Of a stretch of 49,406 nucleotides of DNA, positions 1 to 14,643 are shown in pieces. How positions within the stretch are numbered: the stretch's first letter is position 1; every line of letters starts with the position of its first letter. A program made the translations under genes and the position numbers. The notes beneath the pieces are model-generated. The model was given only the letters and a program-made list of their open reading frames with translations. It was not told the origin of the DNA and did not search any database. This stretch comes from Chrysochromulina tobinii (lineage: Eukaryota). The stretch is taken from contig JWZX01003226.1 of assembly GCA_001275005.1 (NCBI GenBank), positions 1 to 49,406 of the forward strand. The letters are read 5' to 3'.

Positions 1-1795
1 CGGCGGCTGGGCGGCGGCCCGCAGGGGCGCTGCCCACGCCACTCGGGCCCGCGCCGCTGCTTCTGCCGCCGGCCGCGCCCGTGCCGACGCCCTCGGCCGT
101 GGCGGCCGCCTCAGCAGCTTCAAACTCCTCCTGCGCGATCTTCTCGAGCAGCTTCTCGTGGTCCTTACGCGAGCTGAGGTTCGGGGCATCGCCGTCGGCG
201 CGCGCCATCTCGGCGGCCATGCGCCGCTGCATCTTCTTGCGCGTCTCCTCGAGCCACTGGTCGGTCTGCTGCTGGATGGCGCCCTTCTCCTCCTTGCCCA
301 CGAAGCCCTCGAAGACGGCCGCGTCGAGCATCCTCTGCGGCAGCAGCCGCAGCTGGTCCTTTGTGTTGCCTGCGAGCATCTCGCTCACGAGGCCCTGGAT
401 CTGCTGTGGAACTTCCGAAGGCAAGGCTTCCTCGTCGAGCTCGCTCGCCATCTTGCGCTTGCCACCCTCCTTGCCGCCCGCGCTCTCCTTGGTTGCTTTC
501 GCACCCTTATTGGAGCGGTGGAACTTGAGCATCGACGAAGGGTTGGCCACCCGCTCGACGAAGCGAGCCCCAAACTTTTGCGGGTTGAGCGTCGAGAATC
601 CCGTGTAGTCGACCTTGAGCCTAAGCAGCGGATACTTTTGGCGGTTCTCGTCTGCAGCGGTCAGCGGCGTGGTCGGGAACTTGGCGTGCACTTCCGCGAG
701 CATATCCTCCACCTGCTCCGCCAGCAGCTCCGCCAGCCCCTCCTCGCTCTCAAGCTCGCGCTCGTCGGCGTGGCTGGCGAGCACCACCTCACGTAGCACG
801 AACGGGCGCGCCGTCTGGAGCTCGATCGGCTCGAACTTGTAGTTGTCGCCGCACACCTGCAGCAGCGCGACGCACTTCTTGCCCGCCTCCGCGTCCGCGA
901 GCTCCGTCGCCACCGTCGCGCCCGGCTGCAGGACGGCAAACTTGACCCCAGGGTCGACCGGCGCGTCAGCCACGCTGCTGGGCAGCGTGCACTCACGCTC
1001 ATGCCCCCAGAGCACGAGGTCCATACACGAGGGCAGGAGCGCCTCCTTAACGGCACCCGCGGTGCCCGTCGAGGTCTTCGCGCGGTTCTGGTGCAGCGCG
1101 AGTACGTTGAACCACGTCTCCGGATCACTCGACGGCCGCGCTACGTTGAACTCCTTGCGCTCCAGAGCGCGCGTCAGCTGGTCGTTGTTCACGTGGCCCA
1201 TGCCGTAGAGCGCGAGCTTGGTTGTGCCCTTGCGGATGAGCAGCGGCGTGAGTGCGATGTGCGCCGTGTTCGGCACCTTGCCAAAGTAATTGAGCAGGTT
1301 GGCCGACGCGAGCAGGTCGAGCGCTGATAGACCACCCTCGCCGCCAGGGTCATCGTGGTCGCCGTGGATGGCAAACACGGGCAGCTGCACGTTGTAGTTG
1401 GGATCCTCGTAGTTGACCGACTTGTAGTTGCCGTGGAAGGACGCGCCCTGGTCGGACAGGATGTCCAGCGAGACGTCGCCGTTGCCGAGGCAATGGTTGC
1501 GCAGCACCTCGATTGCCGTCTGCATCGCCCGGCGCGAGGGCTTGTTCTCGTGGAAGAGGTTGCCCGTGAGCAGCACCATGTCGGCGCGTTGCTCGACGGC
1601 GATCCGAAAGATCTCCTCAAAGGTGTTCTTTGCGTCGTCCTTGCGGATTGGGTCGCGTTCGTTCAGCCCGAGGTGTGTGTCCGAGGCCAAAAGGATGCGT
1701 ATCACACTGTCGGCAAGGTTTGCCGAAGCGGTGGCCGTCGCAGCCGAACCCGCAGGAGGCTGCTCCGTCTTTGCAGGTGCCTTGGAGGATGGCAT
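1..1795 (-). CDS. MRE11: MRE11 double-strand break repair nuclease homolog; 3' end runs off the window; altered metal-binding motifs
   Basis: Manual translation from ATG at 1795 (absent from the ORF track because it has no stop in the window): IRILLASDTHLG, LLTGNLFHENKPSR, VNYEDPNYNVQLPVFAIHGDHDDP, WFNVLALHQNR, DLVLWGHEREC, QPGATVAT, PLLRLKVDYTGFSTLNPQKFGARFVERVANP, all colinear with eukaryotic MRE11. Confidence 0.95.
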   Translation of the reverse strand, partial: MPSSKAPAKTEQPPAGSAATATASANLADSVIRILLASDTHLGLNERDPIRKDDAKNTFEEIFRIAVEQRADMVLLTGNLFHENKPSRRAMQTAIEVLRNHCLGNGDVSLDILSDQGASFHGNYKSVNYEDPNYNVQLPVFAIHGDHDDPGGEGGLSALDLLASANLLNYFGKVPNTAHIALTPLLIRKGTTKLALYGMGHVNNDQLTRALERKEFNVARPSSDPETWFNVLALHQNRAKTSTGTAGAVKEALLPSCMDLVLWGHERECTLPSSVADAPVDPGVKFAVLQPGATVATELADAEAGKKCVALLQVCGDNYKFEPIELQTARPFVLREVVLASHADERELESEEGLAELLAEQVEDMLAEVHAKFPTTPLTAADENRQKYPLLRLKVDYTGFSTLNPQKFGARFVERVANPSSMLKFHRSNKGAKATKESAGGKEGGKRKMASELDEEALPSEVPQQIQGLVSEMLAGNTKDQLRLLPQRMLDAAVFEGFVGKEEKGAIQQQTDQWLEETRKKMQRRMAAEMARADGDAPNLSSRKDHEKLLEKIAQEEFEAAEAAATAEGVGTGAAGGRSSGAGPSGVGSAPAGRRPAA

Positions 1796-2151
1796 GTCGG
1801 CGGAGCTGCTCTCGTCGCGCGCGCACCGCCCACCCGAAGTGCGGCCCGCGCGTTGTGAATGGCAAACAAGTTTCGTCTGAAGGCCGAAGCGGATCCCAGT
1901 GTACGTTCGACATAGTCTTTTGCACGGCTACGTGTCGTCGCGTGTCCTCGCGGGGTCGCGGCCACACCCGCACACCGCCCGTGGTCCCCGCGCTCAAACC
2001 AGCCGCCGTCTCAGTTTCCCGGATTCCCACTCCGCTCCGCACACTCGTCCAGACCACAAAGGACGGCGCTCCGCGGTCAACACTGCGCTACATTCACAGG
2101 TCGTACCTCAACGTTAAGGTATGCTCGCCGAGAGAGGGCTAGACCGCTCGC

Positions 2152-4785
2152 TCATTGCTCATCATCGCGCTCGACGCTGGGCGCACGATCGCACTGCTCG
2201 AGCCCGACGAGGTCGAACACCGCGCCGGTTTGACGGCGGTACTTGCCGTGCGCGTGCACGATGCCGCTCACGTCGTAGTTCTCGACGCTGTCGCAGCTGA
2301 CCTCGCCGAGCCCGGCGACGCCATACGTCATGTTGGCAGCGCGGTGCACTATCAAGAGCACGAGGTCGTTGGGCCGGTAGCAGTTGACGATGCGCCCTGC
2401 CACCACGAGGCGCAGCCCTTTCCACACCTCCGGATCGGCCGTTGCAGGCAGCCCCATGAGCACCACGTGCTGGATGACGCCGGCAGCGCGCACGTCGCCT
2501 CGCTTGAGGGCCTCGGCAAGCACGAGGAGGCAATCGAAGATGACACGCGCACCGAGCCCGAAGCCGCTCAGGATGACCGGCCTCTTGCCATGAGTGCGCT
2601 CGAGCAGCACGTGCGCGAGCAGCGCGCCCGCCTTTTGCGCGCGCTTGAAGCCGATGGCCCAAGGGTTGTCGATCACGTCGCACGCTTTGACGAGGTAGGC
2701 GGGCATGGCGACTGCGGCCATCAGCGACGCGAGGAACGTGTAATGGAGAGCAGCCGACGCACCTGTACTCACTGCCATGCCTTTCCAGTCAATGTGGCCG
2801 AGCGCGTTGCCGAGCACGCGTAGCTCTTTACTCTCCCAGAGCAGCACGTGGTGCTCCGCGTGCGGCAGACACTCGAGCGCGCTGCGCCCTGGCGCCTCGT
2901 CGATCTGTACGAAGCTCGTCACGCCCAGCCCGTTTTCGGCCTCGCCCTGCTGCTGCCCTCCCGCGCCCTGCTCGGCCGCGCGACTCGCCGAGGATGCGGC
3001 GGCGGCTGCCTCCGGTGTGGCCGCGGCGGCCACCACGCCATCCATGACTGCAAAGGGGAGCGGCGGCGGTGTTGGCGGATCGAGCTGCCTGCTCGCCATC
3101 TTCGCGCCGAGGGACATGCGGCGTAGCGCCGCTACCTCGCCCCCTTGGACCGGCTCTCCTGTTGAAGTCAGGGAGGGCTTGAAGCCGTTGCCAAGCAGCT
3201 CCTCAACGATCTCCTCGAGGCGCACGTGGCGCGGCGCCGCTTCGCGCGCGGCATGCTGTGGGAAGCCCATCTCGACGAGCGCCGAGATGAGCTCCTGCTG
3301 CCGGCGAGCCTCGAGCTCCGCCGCACTCGCCCGAATCTCGTGCGCAGCGAGGGCGGCCGGGGTGGGCGGCAGCGCTGGCATGGGCTCCGGCCACGAAGGG
3401 CGCGGGGGGAACCCACTCGCCACCGGCGCACCCGCGGCGCCCGCGGCGCCCTTGCCCTCCTTGCCTTCCTTGCCTTCCTTGGCTTCAGAGGGAACCTCGG
3501 CCACGTCACCCCACCAGTGCTGCTGTGGGGTGTCCGTGTCGCCCGCGAGCCACCCCGACACACACACGACGACCACGAGGCCGTCGGTGCCGTCGAAGGC
3601 GGCCTCAGCGGCCTCATCCACGTCCTTGCCGCCCTCGGGATCGCCCTTGGCATCGACGAGCGCGCTTGCTGAGGACGCGCGGCCCACCATCTGGCTTTCC
3701 TCGCTCATGCGCTTAGCGTGCCGCTCGGCGGCGGAGGGCGGCTGCGCAAACTCAAACTCCTGCACGTCGCCGAGGCGTCGGTTGAGCTTGAGCGAGGCGA
3801 GCCCGGCGCCAGTTGCGCCGAAGAGCGTGGTCACCACCGTCACACCGATGGACCCCTGTAGCACGGCGGTGATGCCAACGATCGAGGCGCCCACAGCGGT
3901 CGTCAGCGTGCCCGAACCGACCAGGCCGGCCGCACCGACCGCGCCCCCGATGCCCGCGATGCCCGTGCCAACTGCGCCGAGGCCTGCGAGCACCGCAGGC
4001 GCCGCGAGGCCCGCGGTCAAGCCTATTGCGAGGCCGGACGCGACCCCGATGCCTGCCACCGCCGCGCGCCTGCGCCACTTGGCCGAAATGTACGGCTTCT
4101 TGCCCGGCACGCAGGCCGCGCTGCCGGCCGCGCCGGCGGGGGCGCGGCGCTCCATCTCGGCGCTCTCTTGCAGTGCGGCCAGGCTCGCCGCCTGCGCGCG
4201 CATCGAGTCGGCGAGCTGCCGCTCCATCTCCGCCATCTTCTGCCACGGCACGCCGAGCGTATTGGCCAGCTCGACGAGGAGCTGGCGCGAGCGCGCGTCG
4301 TAGCCCTCCGTCTGCGCATCCTCGGAAAGGATGGTGACTGCGAGAAGCGCGAGCAGCAGCGCCGCGCGCTCCTCCTCCTCCGCAGGCAGCAGGCTGATGA
4401 GCGCCCGTTTCGCATCTTCTTTCGCGGTCGCATTGTGCTCGTAGATGGGCAGGAGCGCCTCCAAATGCTCGACGGGCAGCTTGAGCGCCGAAAGCGCGAT
4501 TTTCCGCAAACAGCCACGGCAGAAGGCGTCGCCCCAGTTGGAGCCCTTGGAGCCGAGCAGCGCGGCTATCAGGCCGCCCAGCGCAAACTGGTGCTCGTGC
4601 GGCAGGCGAGAGAGCAGCTCAGAGGCGGCTTGGCTCGCCGAGGGCGGCTTCTGCGGCTGGGACGTCCCGCTGGCCCCGCCGCATGGCTGCGCCTCCCACT
4701 GCGGCGGGGCTTGCGGAGATGCTGCAAAACCGCGAAGCAAATGCATGTGGCACCTCAAGCGCAAATCAACTAGGCACGCAAACAC
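2152..4785 (-). CDS. TMCO4/Mil1-like DUF726 alpha/beta-hydrolase-fold membrane protein with a UBA-like insertion
   Basis: GYDARSRQLL, Gly/Ala-rich hydrophobic segment IGLTAGLAAP...LFGATGAGL, RRLGDVQEFEF, VCVSGWL, WESKEL, VIDNPW, GKRPVILSGFGLGARVIFDCL, VVAGRIVNCY. Exact start uncertain. Confidence 0.85.
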   Translation of the reverse strand: MFACLVDLRLRCHMHLLRGFAASPQAPPQWEAQPCGGASGTSQPQKPPSASQAASELLSRLPHEHQFALGGLIAALLGSKGSNWGDAFCRGCLRKIALSALKLPVEHLEALLPIYEHNATAKEDAKRALISLLPAEEEERAALLLALLAVTILSEDAQTEGYDARSRQLLVELANTLGVPWQKMAEMERQLADSMRAQAASLAALQESAEMERRAPAGAAGSAACVPGKKPYISAKWRRRAAVAGIGVASGLAIGLTAGLAAPAVLAGLGAVGTGIAGIGGAVGAAGLVGSGTLTTAVGASIVGITAVLQGSIGVTVVTTLFGATGAGLASLKLNRRLGDVQEFEFAQPPSAAERHAKRMSEESQMVGRASSASALVDAKGDPEGGKDVDEAAEAAFDGTDGLVVVVCVSGWLAGDTDTPQQHWWGDVAEVPSEAKEGKEGKEGKGAAGAAGAPVASGFPPRPSWPEPMPALPPTPAALAAHEIRASAAELEARRQQELISALVEMGFPQHAAREAAPRHVRLEEIVEELLGNGFKPSLTSTGEPVQGGEVAALRRMSLGAKMASRQLDPPTPPPLPFAVMDGVVAAAATPEAAAAASSASRAAEQGAGGQQQGEAENGLGVTSFVQIDEAPGRSALECLPHAEHHVLLWESKELRVLGNALGHIDWKGMAVSTGASAALHYTFLASLMAAVAMPAYLVKACDVIDNPWAIGFKRAQKAGALLAHVLLERTHGKRPVILSGFGLGARVIFDCLLVLAEALKRGDVRAAGVIQHVVLMGLPATADPEVWKGLRLVVAGRIVNCYRPNDLVLLIVHRAANMTYGVAGLGEVSCDSVENYDVSGIVHAHGKYRRQTGAVFDLVGLEQCDRAPSVERDDEQ

Positions 4786-4889
4786 TCATGATAGGTTCGG
4801 AGGAAAGTCATTACGACGTGCGAAGTTCGCGGACCACCATAGCGCCCCCGCGCCACGGTGGGCGCGCGCATGCATTTGATGGGGAAAGG

Positions 4890-6650
4890 GGGGAACGGGG
4901 AGTGTGCTTTTTCTATGTCCACGTGCCTTGGCCGACACCGCCCGGGCACATGAGGAAGGAAGAGGTCGCCCGGGCGCCGCTTTCGTCCGGCTGCACACGC
5001 TGTCCGTTCCGCGTCCAACTCGATCCGAACCCTTGCGGCATCATCCTTGGCCGCGTCGCGCTCGGCGCGGACGGCTTCCACTCCCAGCGAGGCCGCGACG
5101 GTGGCGGCGGCGGCTGTGGCCTGTCTGCGGCAGCCGCTCGGTCGTTGGCGGCTAGAAGTCATTCTTGTGACGGTCCGCGTGGCCTTCTCGACCGCCACCA
5201 CCTTGCACCGCAGCCACCTAAAATGGGAGGCTCCCCACTTCCGCTTCCCACGGCGCGAGGTCTGAGACATGCCGGGGCTTCCGGAACCCACCGGAGCATC
5301 ACCGGAGTACCGACCTTGAGCTGCCTAAGCACGCGCTCCGACCCCGAGACGTCACGGTGTGCGCCCTCCTTGCCTTGTGCATGACGCATGGCGATGGACG
5401 CACTCGCGCGCCCGGTACCCCCGCGCTTCGCTCCGCGTCCCCGCTCTACTTCGCCTTCGGACGGGCGGACATGCTGGGCAGATCCTCGCCATCGCTGGCC
5501 CAAGGCGTCTCGGACAGCTCGGTGTTCCAGGCCGAGAGGGCCGTCGCCAGGTGTTCGTGGAGGCCCAGGCGGCCGGCTCTCTCGACGAGGGCCCTCGCGT
5601 CCTGGTACTTGCAGTACATGATGTTCTTGAACTGGCGGACGATCGCGTCGGAGGTGCTCCCGATGGTGCACAACTTGAATCTTCGCCTTGTGGCGATGGA
5701 CGCACCGAAGATCAACCTGAACGTGGCCGTCGGGAGCGCAGCGAATGAATCTGTGTTATCGTAGTACCCGTTGACGATATCGCGTGCTTGTTTGTGCTTC
5801 GCCGCATGCAGTGGCTGCTTGCCAAGCGCTTTCTTCACGTGAGTGTAGAATGTGGTCTTTCTCGAGGACGAGATTTCAAGGGCGATGAGACTGCTGATGC
5901 CCGCGAAGATCTGTGTGTTGTACGGAAGTGTTCCGTGGCGACTGGACAGCGCCTTCAACCCCATCACGAGTTCCGGGATGCGCTGAAAGTGCTGTGGTGC
6001 AACAAGCACTTAGGAGCGCCGCCGCGCTCGTCACCTCGTTTCTGATGTCGCTGGCGACTAGAACAGTATGATATGTCGACGTTGCCAGGCACCCTTGCTT
6101 CTTGTTGAGGAGGTCCGTGAGCTGCCTGCTTGCCGTCATGCCGACGTTGAGGAAGATGAGCTGGAAGTTGGCCTTGAGGAGGTAATCGATGACCTTCATG
6201 TTCAATCTAAAGCCGTCAGCGCGGATCTTCAGGGTCTTCCCCCCAGTTGGATGTCGGAGGTGATGACGTCGGACAGCGGGTAGGCTGACCCTTCGAGGGC
6301 GGCTGTCAAGACCTGTGGAGGCAAAGGGTCAGGATGTGAGTGTTGTAGGTGACGGGGAAGAAGGGCATGGGCTCAATCATATGGTGCCCAACTTCTTCGC
6401 CTTGTAGGCGGCCGTCGCCACCGACCCGTCACCACCGACGACATCCCCGATGCATTCGCCGCCGCCGCCGCCGCCGCCGCCCTCAAACCCGCCGCCTCCG
6501 CCACCTCCGATGACCTTGTCGCCGCCGCCGCCGCCACCCTCGCCGCCGCCGCCGACGACATCGCCGCCCTCTTCGCCACCGCCGCCTCCTCGACCACCGC
6601 CGGTCCGCCGCCACCTCCGTCATCTTCCCCGTTGCCTTCGCCGCCATGGC
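4890..6650 (-). pseudogene. Degenerate, frameshifted spliced gene of unknown family
   Basis: Protein-like segments in different minus frames (4770-5291, 5159-5450, 5446-6009, 5876-6205 and upstream VLTAALEGSAYPLSDVI). A 43-nt GT-AG intron (5992-6034) joins SDIRNE to HFQRIPEL; a second intron-like segment (~6315-6392) has a CTGAC branch point and CACAG acceptor. Other joins need frameshifts. Confidence 0.35.
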
Positions 6651-7632
6651 CGCCGCCTCCTCCGCCTCGTGTTCACATGAGCAGCGCCTCGTGGCACAGT
6701 CCGGGGATTTGTCACCAACTAAATTTCACAGATGGTTTTTTACATATTCATACCACATTTGGAAATTGCGACGGGCGAGCGGCTGGAATGCAAAAGTCGC
6801 AAAGGCCGTCGCCCTCGTGCCGCTTCTCGGCCGAGATATCCGGCTTTCGCGTCGGCACAGACCGCGCCTCCGCCACCACATTCAGCACCTTGGACGCTGC
6901 GCAGCACGCATGCCTCGAGCTGGGCGCCGAGTGCGGCGGCGTCACCAGCTCAAAGCACGACACCTTTGAGGCGCGCAAGGGCAGCGAGCCGACGCCCTCG
7001 CCGACTGGCGCCGGCGCGTGGATGAAGCTGTGCGACGGCGGCACGTGCGAGCTTGAAGACGGTGTATGGTATTGGGGCGCTCACCTTCGCACGGTGCCAC
7101 ATTTGGCTGACGCCTCGAGCTGCTGCGACATGTGCATCGCATCGCCTGCATGTGTCTCGTTCAATTATGAACAATCGGGCGGCGGCAACGAGAAGTCGTG
7201 TGCGCTGTTCGCCTCGCGCACGGAGCGACACGCAGACGCTGGCTTTACTGCGGGCACCGTCCTGCGCAGCCCGAGCCCACCACCTCCGTCGCCGCCGCTC
7301 CCGCCGGCGCCACCGTGGCGGCCGCCCTCGCCGCCACCGACGCCGTCACCGCCGCCGCCCTCGCCGCTGCCGCCACCGCCCTCGCCGCCGCCACCGCCGC
7401 CACCGCCAACGCCGCCACCGCCGTGCCCGCCTTCTCCCTCGCCGCCGCCGCCGCCGCAGCTTGCGCTCCAGCCGGGCAAGCCGATGTTGTTGCAGGCCTC
7501 GTGCTCGTCACTCACCGTGCAGTGGGCGGAGGCAGCGCTGCCCTCGCGCGTGCTCGAGTACGTCGTCACGTACGGCCCCACGGAGGAGCGGAGCGGTGCG
7601 CGAGCCACCGTGCGCGTGGATCCGACCAAACG

Positions 7633-7663
<31 letters not shown>

Positions 7664-10600
7664 AATGGCGGCCGCAACGGAGCGGGTACTGGCGGCGGCA
7701 GCGATGGTGCTGGCACTAGCGACGCCGGCGCGCTCACCAACCGCGTGGAGCTCATCGGCCTGCACGCGGGCGCCAACTACACGATCAGCGTGCGCGCGCG
7801 CACGGCCGAAGGATCTGGCCCAGTCTCGGAGCTGCTGCTCGCACGCACGATGCGACCGGCTGACTTTCCGATGCCCTTGCCGCCGCCGACGGCCGTGCAG
7901 TCGGAGGGCTGTACGGCGCTCCGGCTGCAGCTGCCCGTGCTCTGTTCGTGCGCGCCCGAGCCGCGCACCACATGGGACCTCGAGCTGGCGCGCGACGGCT
8001 CCGATGACTGGCGTGTGCTCGTCGCCGACACGGCAGGCGGCAGAGTCTCGGCGTTTGGACTCGATCCTTACGGCTCGGTACGCTTCCGGCTGAGTGCGCG
8101 CACGCCCGTGCCGTCGCGCCCGGAGCCGCGCGTTGTGCTGGGCGATGCATCGCCACCAATGCTCGCCGGCCTCGGTGCGGCGGCGCTGCTCCGCCCGCCA
8201 GTCGCCTCGGTCACCTCCTCGGCCTCGATCGAGCTCTCTTGGAGCGGCGCCTTTGACAGTTGCCGCACGCTCACGAGGTGGCAGATCCAGTACACGCGCT
8301 CGCAGGTGAGCGAGGGCGCAGGCGAGGCCGAGCCGGGCGGTGCCTCCGCTTGGGGTGCTCGCCATCTCGTTTTGGGAGGGCTTCGTGCGCCCCCCTCGCC
8401 CCCCTCGCCCCCCTCGCCCTTCCCGACCTTGCCGCTGCCGCCGCCTTCACCGCCGACCCCGCCTTCACCACCGCCGCCTTCACCGCCGCCGCCTCCGCCG
8501 CCGCCGCCTCGACTCGAGACGCCGCCGATTTCGTCACTCGAGACGACGCCGATTTCGTCACCCGAGACGCCGATTTCGTCACCCGAGACACCGATTTCGT
8601 CACCCGAGACGCCGATTTCGTCACTCGAGACGCCGCCGATTTCGTCACCCGAGACGACGCCGATTTCGTCACCCGAGACGCCGCCGATTTCGTCACCCGA
8701 GACGCCGCCGATTTCGTCACCCGAGACGACGCCGATTTCGTCACCCGAGACGACGCCGATTTCGTCACCCGAGACGACGCCGATTTCGTCACCCGAGACG
8801 CGACGACTCACAGACGCCGTCGCGAGCACGTGCTCGGGCGTCCTCTCTGCCGATGGCGCCGCGTGTTGCGCGAGCATGTGTGGCAGGTGCGGCGGGGCGG
8901 GCTGTTCGGCACGGCCCGGCGGCGCCGCGCGCTGCTGCCCCGGCTGGAAGGAGTTTGATGGGCTCGCTGGCCTCTGCGCAGTCACGGGCGGCGCGGCGCC
9001 TTGTTTGACCGACGACCTCGGCGCGGTCAGCTGTGCTCATGGGTTCACACGCGTCGGTGACGAGTGCCTACGCGCATTTAGTGAAGCGATCTCCCACGGG
9101 CGAGCTAGCGAGCAGTGCCGACGTCGCTGGGCCGCTGAGCTAGTGAGTCTGCGCAACGTCGCGACACAGGCGGCCGCGCTGCGCTTGTGTGACGCGGCCA
9201 TCGCCCCAATCAGCGCCGCGGCAAGCGGGCCGGCCGGCGCGGCTTCGGCGGCCTCGGGCTGCTGGGCTGGGGCGAGCACCCGCAGCTGCTCGAGCAGTTA
9301 CGGCGAGCGGCACAAGGGCGACCCTATCAAGGAGGTGAACGCTGTGGACGCCGTCGAGTGCTGCGGCCGGTGCGCAGCCGAACCCGGCTGCCTCCACTAC
9401 ACCTTCGGGTCAGGTGCGCCACGTAGCACGTGCGAGCTCTATGCAGCGGTGGACGGTAAGCTACCGGCCGCGGACGACGTCGTGGCGGGCACCCTGCTAG
9501 GCGGACCGTGGGCATGGGCTGACGGCGGATTGCTGCAGCATGAGGAACATCGCGCCTGGGCACCTGCGCAGCCTGACGGTGCCGATAGCAGCGGCAACCG
9601 CATCATTGGCGTTTCGTGCCTTGAGTTGCTCTCGAGCCGTGGCGTGGACGCAATGGCGCGTGGCAAGTGGGCGGATGCACCGTGCGTGCAGCCCAAGCCG
9701 TTTGTGTGTGCGCGGCCAGCGGACTTAGCCATTCCCTCGCCTGCGCCGCCGCCCTCGCCCTCACCGCCGCCCAGCCCGCCGCATCCGCCGCCAAGTCCCC
9801 AGCCCAAGCCCCCACCCTCGCCGCTACCGCTCCCACCGCCGCGCAAGCCGCCGCCACCACCGCAGCATCCCCATCCGCACCCAGCCCCCATCCCTTCGCC
9901 CTCGCCCTCGCCGCCGCGCCCTCTGCGGCCGCCGCCGCCCCCGCTGGTGCTGCCGCCCTCGCCGCCCCCTCCGACAGTCCCATGCTCCTCGCCTCATGAG
10001 AGCGATACGCGGGTCGAGCGCTGTGCCGATCGCTGCCACATCGAGACCCTCGCGACCGACTGCGGCTGGTGTGAGTGCAAGGCGTGCGACTTTTGTCGCC
10101 GCTTCGCCGCGGACGCACACGCGGTATGGCGCTCGCTACCGTTTGACGGCGCAGACGACGCGGGCGCTGTCGCGGACGGCGCCTTCGCCTCATCGTCTGC
10201 GAGTCAGCGCCTGGCCGCGGCGGCCGTGCCCCCTTCGAGCGTGCGTACTCTCTCGCCCACAGAGCTCGAGCTCGCGGCCTTTCGCTGCCCGCCGCCCGCT
10301 GGCTGCCGCTTCCGCTTCCGGCCACTGAACGTGCACGGCTGGCACGACTGGTCGCTCAGCAGTGACAGGGCCACAACAGACCGGCTGCCCTCGCCGCCGG
10401 CGCACGCGCTGCGACTGGAGATGCGTCTCCTCGCGCCGTTCACACGAGAGCGCTCACTGCTCGAGGAGGTCCTCCTGCGCGACCTCGCCAAAGCGCTTCG
10501 CATCCCGCGAGCCTCCATCCGGCTCGTCGAGCTGCGTCTGGCCGCCGAGTACGCGACTGTTGATCTCCTTGAGCCAGGAGCCTACACCGCGGCAAGCCGC

Positions 10601-13184: not shown

Positions 13185-14643
13185 TCATTTGCTTCGCAAG
13201 CAAGTTTCAATGAGCAGATCAAGCACATCATCGGGAAACTTCATGCTGTATTTGTTCAGCCACAGCAGCAGCAAGACAAATCGCTGGGTGGTGACGTTGA
13301 ACATCAAATGATCTTTGCGAGACCAATTGACCACATCCCAGACTTTGATCGTCCCGTCGCACGATCCCGACATAATCTTGGGCCCGTCCGGGGAAAACGC
13401 CACCGACATGATTGGTAGGCTGTGGGCGTCCGTCTTCTCGCTCAACAGCTCCAGTTTGTCTGCCAGGCAAGCCATATGGCGTCAGCGTCAGTTTTGGCCA
13501 AGGAGGGGCGATTCGAGGGCTCTGGCGCACCAAAATCCCAGACTTTGATCGTCATGTCGTGCGATCCGGACACAATTTTGGTCCCGTCCGGGGAGAACGC
13601 CACCGACCTGATGGTGTCGCTGTGGGCGTTCGTCTTCTCGCTCAAGACCTCCAGCTTGTCTGCCAGACAAGCCAGCAAGCGTCAGTTTTGGCCAAGGAGG
13701 GGCGATTTGAGGGCGTAGTGCACCCGAATCCCAGACTTTGATCGTCTTGTCGTCCGATCCCGACACAATCTTGGTCCCGTCCGGGGAGAACGCGACCGAA
13801 TTGACGTCCCCGCTGTGGGCGTTGATCTTCTCGCTCAGCAGCTCCAGCTTGTCTGCCAGACAAGCCAACAAGTGTCAGTTTCGGCCAAGTAGGGGTGATT
13901 TGAGTGCTCCGGCGCACCTGAATCCCAGACTTTGATCGTCTTGTCGTGCGATCCTGACACAATCTTCGTCCCATCCGGGGAAAACGCAACCGACCAGATC
14001 ACGCTGCTGTGCGCGTTTGTATTCTCGCTCAGCAGCCCCAGCGCGCCTGCCGGACAAGCCAGCAGGCGTCAGTTTTGGCCAAGGAGGGGCGATTTTGAGG
14101 GCTTTGGCGCACCCGAATCCCAGACTTTGATCGTCTTGTCGTACGATCCCGACACAATCTTGGTCCCGTCCGGGGAAAACGCCACCGACGCTACGCAGTC
14201 GCTGTGGGCGTTCGTCTTCTCGCTCAGCTCCTCCAGCTTGTCTGCCAGACAATCCAACAGGCATCATTTTTGGCCAAAAGAGGAGGGGCGATTTTGGGCT
14301 CGCGGCGCACCCGATTCCCAGACTTTGATCGTCCTGTCGCGCGATCCCGAGACAATCTTCGTTCCGTCCGGGGAGAACGCCACTGACATGACCCAGCTGC
14401 TGTGGGCGTTGGTCTCCTCGCTCAACATCTCCAGCTTGTCTGCCAGGCAAGCGAGCAAGCGTTAGTTTTGGCGGAGGAGGGGCGATTTTGAGCTCGCGCC
14501 GCACCTGAATCCCAGATTTTGATCGTCTTGTCCTCCGATCCCGACACAATCTTGGTCCCGTCCGGGGAAAACGCCACCGACATGACCCAGCTGCTGTGGG
14601 CGTTTGTCTTCTCCGTTAAACACTTGATGAGCGTCGCGATCAT
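13185..14643 (-). CDS. Seven-bladed WD40 protein (HET-E/NWD-type repeats), one repeat per exon, with a short helical C-terminal tail; predicted 352 aa
   Basis: Exons 14643-14505, 14439-14311, 14241-14113, 14046-13918, 13852-13724, 13659-13531, 13459-13185 sum to 1059 nt (353 codons, in frame). Introns are GTGC...CTGAC-like...GGCAG, phase 1. Repeat consensus [32 protein letters not shown]. An acceptor just before the ATG (14645-14646) means an upstream exon may exist. Confidence 0.88.
13330..14615. repeat. Tandem array of 7 ~195-bp units (129-nt exon + 64-71-nt intron)
   Basis: Recurrent CCCAGACTTTGATCGTC, CCGTCCGGGGA and intronic TTTTGGCCAAGGAGGGGCGATT at ~195-bp spacing. Confidence 0.95.

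Follow-up and report, generated by a model that had tools for sequence, protein, structure and literature searches.

We found a second, altered MRE11 gene at one edge of a 49,406-nucleotide stretch of Chrysochromulina tobinii DNA (the whole stretch analysed, here called the window). The gene belongs to an old, conserved clade of Prymnesiales, and its product is probably a non-cutting subunit of the MRN complex that has been kept by selection. Cutting and scaffolding by MRE11 have so far been separated mainly by laboratory alleles such as yeast D56N. Evolution appears to have produced a D56N-type allele, removed the RAD50 latch as well, and maintained the result next to an intact gene from before the split of Prymnesium and Chrysochromulina. 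The paralog lets one ask, in a natural setting, what purpose a non-cutting MRN serves and whether a separate gene can supply the passive subunit of the asymmetric cutting state.

The altered gene and its active site

The paralog is encoded on the minus strand, from an ATG at 1795, and its frame is open to the window edge (residues 1-598). A locus that is 100% identical to window positions 1-7795 (L001) supplies the full intronless open reading frame of 786 amino acids, in agreement with the conserved open frame described in the initial annotation. The nearest named proteins were from haptophytes. Pfam matches were PF00149 (39.8 bits; cut-off 21.5) and PF04152 (130.6 bits; cut-off 25). The equivalog cut-off of TIGR00583 (434.6 bits) was missed by the paralog (L001, 421.1) and by its Prymnesium parvum counterpart (P0007, 426.2), whereas a canonical C. 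parva protein (P0153) scored 447; the margin is narrow.

The sequence of the gene is secure. No letter differed between the window gene and contigs from two DNA runs, which may themselves be the source of the window DNA, and two RNA runs. The 90% cluster that holds the window's protein has 18 members, 15 of them listed and one of these the window's own; all 14 others carry the paralog's residues (core identity 353/363 to 401/401). Assembly error, an outcome that the initial annotation had said would overturn its reading, is ruled out by these contigs and proteins. Contigs of the RNA runs spanned 194-1821 (X11) and 158-1765 (X12), a weak sign of expression given that the gene is intronless and DNA carry-over is possible; both runs leave 1822-1896 uncovered, a gap to which we attach no weight. 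The features of the gene are as follows (residues of the window protein, human equivalents in brackets; rows are aligned proteins).

2..1795, minus strand: coding sequence of the MRE11 paralog, residues 1-598 of 786; no intron; 3' end past the window edge; PF00149 and PF04152
1673..1681, minus strand: motif I, D39-T-H41 (D20/H22), intact; D and H in 10/10 covering clade rows
1559..1561, minus strand: N79 (D60N; yeast D56N); N in 11/11 covering clade rows, D in 16/16 canonical haptophyte rows
1550..1552, minus strand: H82 (H63), intact; 11/11 clade rows
1391..1459, minus strand: latching-loop region, about residues 113-135, kept; N128, D131 and N135 (N110, D113, N117); boundaries approximate
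1355..1360, minus strand: D146-H147 (N128D, with H129 intact); D in 11/12 clade rows; H129 replaced by R in 2/12 (P0016, P0007)
1178..1189, minus strand: N203 to Q206, helix arginines lost (185/R188; yeast R181/R184); RAD50 contact of the cutting state
1091..1093, minus strand: H235 (H217), motif IV, intact; 12/12 clade rows
995..1003, minus strand: motif V, H265-E-R267 (H245 kept, H247R); H245 in 12/12 clade rows
890..904, minus strand: E298 and A302 (S273E, G277A), clade-wide; E/D at 273 in 11/11, non-G at 277 in 11/11
236..400, minus strand: retained region of the RAD50-binding helix-loop-helix, roughly residues 466-520; from alignment with canonical copies, boundaries approximate

We transferred human numbering through a bird MRE11, whose nuclease domain can be aligned to that of human MRE11 with no gap (N79 = D60, D146 = N128, R267 = H247). 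Aligned to solved Mre11 chains, the changed sites fell on the GDLFH, GNHDD and GHEH motifs. The substitutions first noticed were all present: GNLFH in motif II (AAC at 1561-1559, N79), GDHDD in motif III (GAC at 1360-1358, D146) and GHERE in motif V (CGT at 997-995, R267). Motifs I (D39/H41) and IV (H235) were intact, as had been claimed, with motif I (1681-1673) just beyond the end coordinate originally given. We take the seven metal ligands of MRE11 to be D20, H22, D60, N128, H217, H245 and H247, with D20, H22, D60 and H247 at metal 1, D60, N128, H217 and H245 at metal 2, and D60 as the bridging ligand. The paralog keeps 4/7 of these (D60N, N128D and H247R being the changes), and H129 and H63 are both intact.

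Chance is excluded as the source of the triple change because these three positions are nearly invariant outside haptophytes. Among 184 non-haptophyte MRE11 rows, D60 was found in 181/183 covering rows, N128 in 183/183 and H247 in 178/178. The two rows that lack D60 (P0040, P0080) each represent a second copy or an entry named 'MRE11-like'.

Related species share the change only in part, where the initial annotation had proposed looking for all three substitutions. D60N (11/11) and N128D (11/12) mark the clade, but H247R occurs in only 7/12 rows; the remainder have K (1), P (1) or H (3). On the Chrysochromulina side of the clade, 8/9 rows have R or K. H247R is a later, lineage-limited step, with 3/12 members still carrying H.

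Changes beyond those first listed were also found: loss of R185/R188 (window N203/Q206), S273E and G277A. R188 was present in 0/12 clade rows (Q206 in the window), in contrast to 18/18 canonical haptophyte rows and 183/184 outgroup rows. Yeast R184 and R181 are reported to touch Rad50 E113 in a modelled active state, and R184E to lower hairpin-cleavage recombination 660-fold (bioRxiv 2023.08.05.552090). In sgs1 yeast cells, R184A is reported to resemble a catalytic-dead allele (PMC7260605).

Much else is kept. Among 87 pan-eukaryote conserved columns, 73 hold their residue in at least 80% of clade rows. R99 (human R80) is retained, and R80, N110, D113 and N117 are present in 12/12 clade rows. 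The hydrophobic dimer-interface positions, an RG-rich stretch and a basic C-terminal tail are also present, as are what we take, by position, to be the RAD50-binding helices (236..400). An AF2 model of the paralog had a mean pLDDT of 89.8 and a TM score of 0.86 to human MRE11. A predicted mixed dimer of the paralog and canonical P0153 scored 0.87, against 0.00 for the best of three controls; the runs shared at least 94% of contacts and partner pLDDT was at least 86. The mark for this prediction was reached by 51/78 solved and 2/108 mismatched pairs, and close cousins also pass, so that the score shows likeness to solved MRE11 dimers and is no proof of binding. Some residues fixed specifically in the clade map to the surface of the predicted dimer (I95, N100, S164), and E298 lies close to the groove.

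Ligand changes of other kinds were seen elsewhere. Eight MRE11 proteins (P0074, P0098, P0100, P0101, P0103, P0104, P0107, P0109) have GNEH in motif V (H245N) with the other ligands intact. A sea urchin 'MRE11A-like' protein (P0080) has D60N and H245R beside a canonical copy (P0055); it may have decayed after duplication, or its gene model may be wrong.

A canonical copy and the age of the paralog

A second, canonical MRE11, which the initial annotation had suggested searching for, turned up in a metagenome scan (80 loci retained from 524 relatives) at a locus with the same assembly prefix as L001. This gene (L003) contains introns, has all motifs canonical and is C. tobinii/parva-like. P0162 matches its first exon throughout (356/356), and one of the later exons shows 99% identity to Chrysochromulina tobinii KOO30390.1 (P0149) and 97-100% identity to C. 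parva P0153. At the DNA level, the altered and canonical genes share 71% identity across 830 bases. GC content was nearly equal (0.660 vs 0.658), and the tetranucleotide correlation of L003 with the window was 0.974, compared with 0.90 for the next non-identical locus. Contig depth was 86.1 vs 79.8 in run X1 and 47.2 vs 45 in run X9 (ratio 1.05-1.08). Both copies are very likely in one genome because depth agrees, though depth is not copy number and the two lie on separate contigs of a mixed-culture assembly. A ranking of the two copies by expression (one long contig for the altered gene, fragments for the canonical gene) was rejected, since the altered gene had served to choose the runs and the depth of contigs gives no ranking of genes.

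The canonical copy has apparent introns at L003:3508-3666 and 3911-4013. The former holds short repeats of the ACCCTA/CCCTAACC type that resemble telomere units.

The duplication is old. We built an IQ-TREE phylogeny from 44 rows and 391 columns, with the seven trait columns removed. The 12 altered rows (11 distinct 90% clusters) grouped at 100/99 support, inside a haptophyte MRE11 clade that was split from 12 outgroup rows at 100/100. The Prymnesium side of the altered clade comprises P. parvum KAL1515391.1, Prymnesium sp. KAL3929211.1 and P0008, and the Chrysochromulina side is mirrored by a 7-row canonical clade. From this tree, the duplication predates the Prymnesium-Chrysochromulina split; it is dated only as older than that split because the sister of the altered clade is poorly supported (46/59). 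A recent within-genome duplication, pairing the window gene with its own canonical copy, was rejected (AU p 8e-53). Seven rows that were fragments, intron read-throughs or near duplicates (P0072, P0110, P0097, P0117, P0010, P0014, P0015) did not enter the IQ-TREE analysis; FastTree placed P0072 and P0110 in the altered clade.

The P. parvum protein (P0007, KAL1515391.1) carries D60N, N128D, H129R, R188E and N219K. Among the best 120 matches (about 8000 candidates of 237-1315 residues scored), P. parvum had this altered copy and no canonical one, and Diacronema, Chrysotila, Emiliania, Isochrysis and Tisochrysis had canonical matches only.

The paralog has not evolved neutrally. Between L001 and an altered ortholog (L014; 287 codons, one exon boundary placed to the nearest codon), dN was 0.23 and omega = 1 was rejected (2dlnL 192); dS was saturated in all three pairs compared, which gives no point estimate of omega. 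For this one pair, neutral evolution, named at the outset, together with lack of expression, as a result that would undo the reading, is rejected. A canonical pair had an equal dN. Orthologs of the paralog are 52-76% identical and have substitutions in common, and its root-to-tip path in the tree is about 1.5x that of the canonical copy.

Altered duplicates in Isochrysidales and grasses

Altered MRE11 copies were also found outside the Prymnesiales clade. P0020, which lies inside the Isochrysidales canonical clade, carries D60N, N128S, H129K, R188T, N219K and G277D. Its placement in the window's clade was rejected (AU p 0.00017). Its motifs read GNLFH, GSKDD, REET and HQKR.

A Digitaria protein with D60N (P0040) pointed to the grass Mre11B clade. 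The 14 rows of this group (P0040, P0308-P0319, P0351) are 70-84% identical to P0040 and form their own plant clade. D60N with H129Q was found in 4/14 rows, N128S in 3/14 and N219K in 6/14, and G277 was lost in 14/14. R188 and H247 were present in 14/14, and all ten tested residues (where covered) were intact in 7/14. Maize Mre11B (XP_020406841.1, P0317) has GNLFH and GDQDY, that is, D60N, N128D and H129Q, plus N219K and loss of G277. D60N with H129Q was also found in sorghum, Miscanthus and Digitaria, and N128S/N219K in Panicum; the ligands are intact in Setaria, Phragmites and Eragrostis. Grass Mre11B is losing its active site in one lineage after another.

These duplicates seem to have changed the same sites independently. 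The window gene and the grass duplicate, compared in separate trees, gave no indication of a common origin. Convergence would be partial, as grass Mre11B retains R188. Of the sites compared, 9 had changed in both the haptophyte and the grass paralogs, 22 in the haptophyte paralogs alone, 8 in the grass paralogs alone and 73 in neither (Fisher p 0.016). This overlap is only indicative, as the rows share descent, the threshold was set arbitrarily and mis-called gene ends inflate the counts. The occurrence of N60/N128 in sorghum and Miscanthus beside N60/D128 in maize, and likewise of P0008 beside its relatives, suggests that D60N was the initial step and N128D a later, compensating change.

We tentatively consider a wider pattern, which is possible but somewhat doubtful. 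MRE11 would have been duplicated and turned into a non-cutting protomer at least three times (Prymnesiales, Isochrysidales and panicoid grasses including maize) through the same residues (D60N, then N128D/S, H129, N219K and G277). Such a protomer could build the asymmetry of cutting permanently into an active:dead heterodimer or provide a second, non-resecting MRN for repair choice or end protection.

Maize Mre11B has been studied before. A dN/dS of 0.37 is reported for it, the two maize copies are described as functional homologs with a selective sweep at Mre11B, and the accessible part of that paper makes no mention of catalytic loss (PMC5267385). Mre11b mRNA is reported to rise in genome-unstable maize mms21 mutants (PMC8568144). 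The swap in a gene with a reported sweep makes the question testable in a genetic model, and alters the reading of that gene.

A putative non-cutting subunit and the alternatives

Our results are most consistent with a non-cutting subunit because the bridging ligand and the RAD50 latch are lost while the features that a passive subunit needs are kept. The drift of catalytic sites within the clade (H129R in 2/12; four states at 247), with conserved columns held, also favours this. The initial annotation had offered either a structural pseudo-nuclease paralog or a one-metal site with Arg in place of a metal. The former is strengthened by the canonical copy, the old clade, the rejection of neutrality and the loss of R188; the latter is weakened by the four states at 247.

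We suggest the following mechanism. Like D56N in yeast, D60N would put an end to DNA cleavage, and without R188 the protein would fail to dock on RAD50 in the pose for cutting. N128D is probably the later change and would restore an acidic ligand, so that one structural metal (N60/D128/H217/H245) may remain; by our assumed ligand scheme, metal site 2 could still hold one ion, and site 1 probably could not. The canonical copy likely does the cutting. The paralog would form homodimers, or mixed dimers with the active copy, and would still bind RAD50. It would then serve to tether DNA ends or shield them and to support signalling, and in a mixed dimer only the passive position would be open to it. 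The proposed loss of nuclease activity is an analogy with yeast D56N, which is reported to have no endonuclease activity in vitro while the complex still forms, and to rescue X-ray sensitivity when Dna2 is present (PMC2625443). In the cutting state only one Mre11 subunit is reported to reach DNA (PMC10418313).

Against a non-cutting paralog stand the invariance of D20, H22, H63, H217 and H245 and the retention of H129 in 10/12 rows, more than a fully dead pocket would strictly need. The D/N swap keeps charge, so residual or altered chemistry is possible. The paralog might instead be a rewired enzyme, with a one-metal or differently bridged two-metal site in which H129 and H63 sustain a phosphodiesterase activity that is weak or of a new kind, and Arg247, in this lineage, makes up for the lost positive charge. 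The five invariant ligand or catalytic residues, N128D in 11/12 rows, the R/K at 247 on the Chrysochromulina side and the recurrence of the swap in maize Mre11B, which makes it look selected and not random, all speak for such an enzyme. We nevertheless consider it unlikely. H129 is lost in P. parvum, P0016 and P0020 and in the copies of maize, sorghum, Miscanthus and Digitaria, four different residues occur at position 247, the R188 latch of the cutting state is absent in 12/12 rows, and D56N by itself reportedly removes endonuclease activity in yeast.

A paralog that had left MRN altogether, with the old fold turned to some unrelated task such as the binding of chromatin, telomeres or RNA, could account for the clade-specific residues I95, N100, S164 and E298 and for the longer root-to-tip path, but is improbable with the latching loop, R80, the RAD50-binding helices, the RG-rich stretch and the basic C-terminal tail all kept. 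It is more improbable still that two haptophytes were co-cultured and that the paralog is the sole MRE11 of one of them, with resection by EXO1/DNA2. Such a mixture would fit the mixed-culture assembly, the separate contigs and the lack of a canonical P. parvum copy among the best 120 matches; the depth ratio in two runs, the equal GC, the tetranucleotide correlation and the mirrored canonical and altered clades argue against it. A decaying duplicate or an assembly artefact, which the somewhat longer branches might hint at, is the least credible of these and is largely refuted by the run contigs, the omega test and the cluster proteins. The open 786-codon frame and the shared substitutions of the orthologs also oppose it.

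Several known proteins invite comparison with the putative non-cutting paralog. Canonical eukaryotic MRE11 (human 9q9j/9ulo, Chaetomium 4yke, S. pombe Rad32 4fbw) is 38-43% identical to it, with a fold TM of 0.86, and is alike in PF00149 and PF04152 order and in the sequence of the dimer surface, latching loop, RAD50-binding helices and RG-rich tail, but lacks D60N, N128D, H247R, R188Q, S273E and G277A. The yeast alleles mre11-D56N and mre11-R184A/E alter the same two positions and are reported to be nuclease-dead or resection-defective; in the paralog the two changes are natural, combined and fixed in a clade beside a wild-type gene. Grass Mre11B is likewise a retained second MRE11, with the same D60N/N128D swap in maize, but arose by independent duplication and kept R188 and H247. 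Dead paralogs retained next to an active enzyme are known, and the MRE11 paralog may likewise pair with its active counterpart. Drn1/Cwf19 is such a partner of Dbr1, and trypanosome prozyme and dead DHS are reported cases. These three activate their partners, which sets them apart from the passive role proposed for the MRE11 paralog. Drosophila mojavensis mre11-dup is likewise an expressed, faster-evolving second mre11, reportedly about 15 million years old (PMC3053365).

The paralog is real and conserved, and it is apparently undescribed. Titles and abstract openings among the matches listed describe no catalytically altered eukaryotic MRE11 paralog, although the Altun thesis and Waterworth 2007 may note the maize changes. 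'Mre11' is absent from the accessible main text of the C. tobin genome paper, and the accessible parts of PMC6264785, PMC12712053, PMC3526295 and bioRxiv 2025.11.07.687317 held nothing decisive on such a paralog.

Genes near the paralog (DUF726, PAN/fn3, ankyrin, GH5 and others) had no visible link to DNA repair in the window. The upstream neighbour (2152-4785, minus strand) is a stop-to-stop frame of 877 residues that contains DUF726 and, internally, a weak UBA-like match; it had no visible tie to MRE11. At 13335-14613, minus strand, are approximately 6.5 tandem units of 194 bases that are 82% alike. Each unit encodes one peptide, which we take to be WD40-like, in shifting frames with stop-containing spacers between, and the repeats are probably a WD40 array with one repeat per exon.
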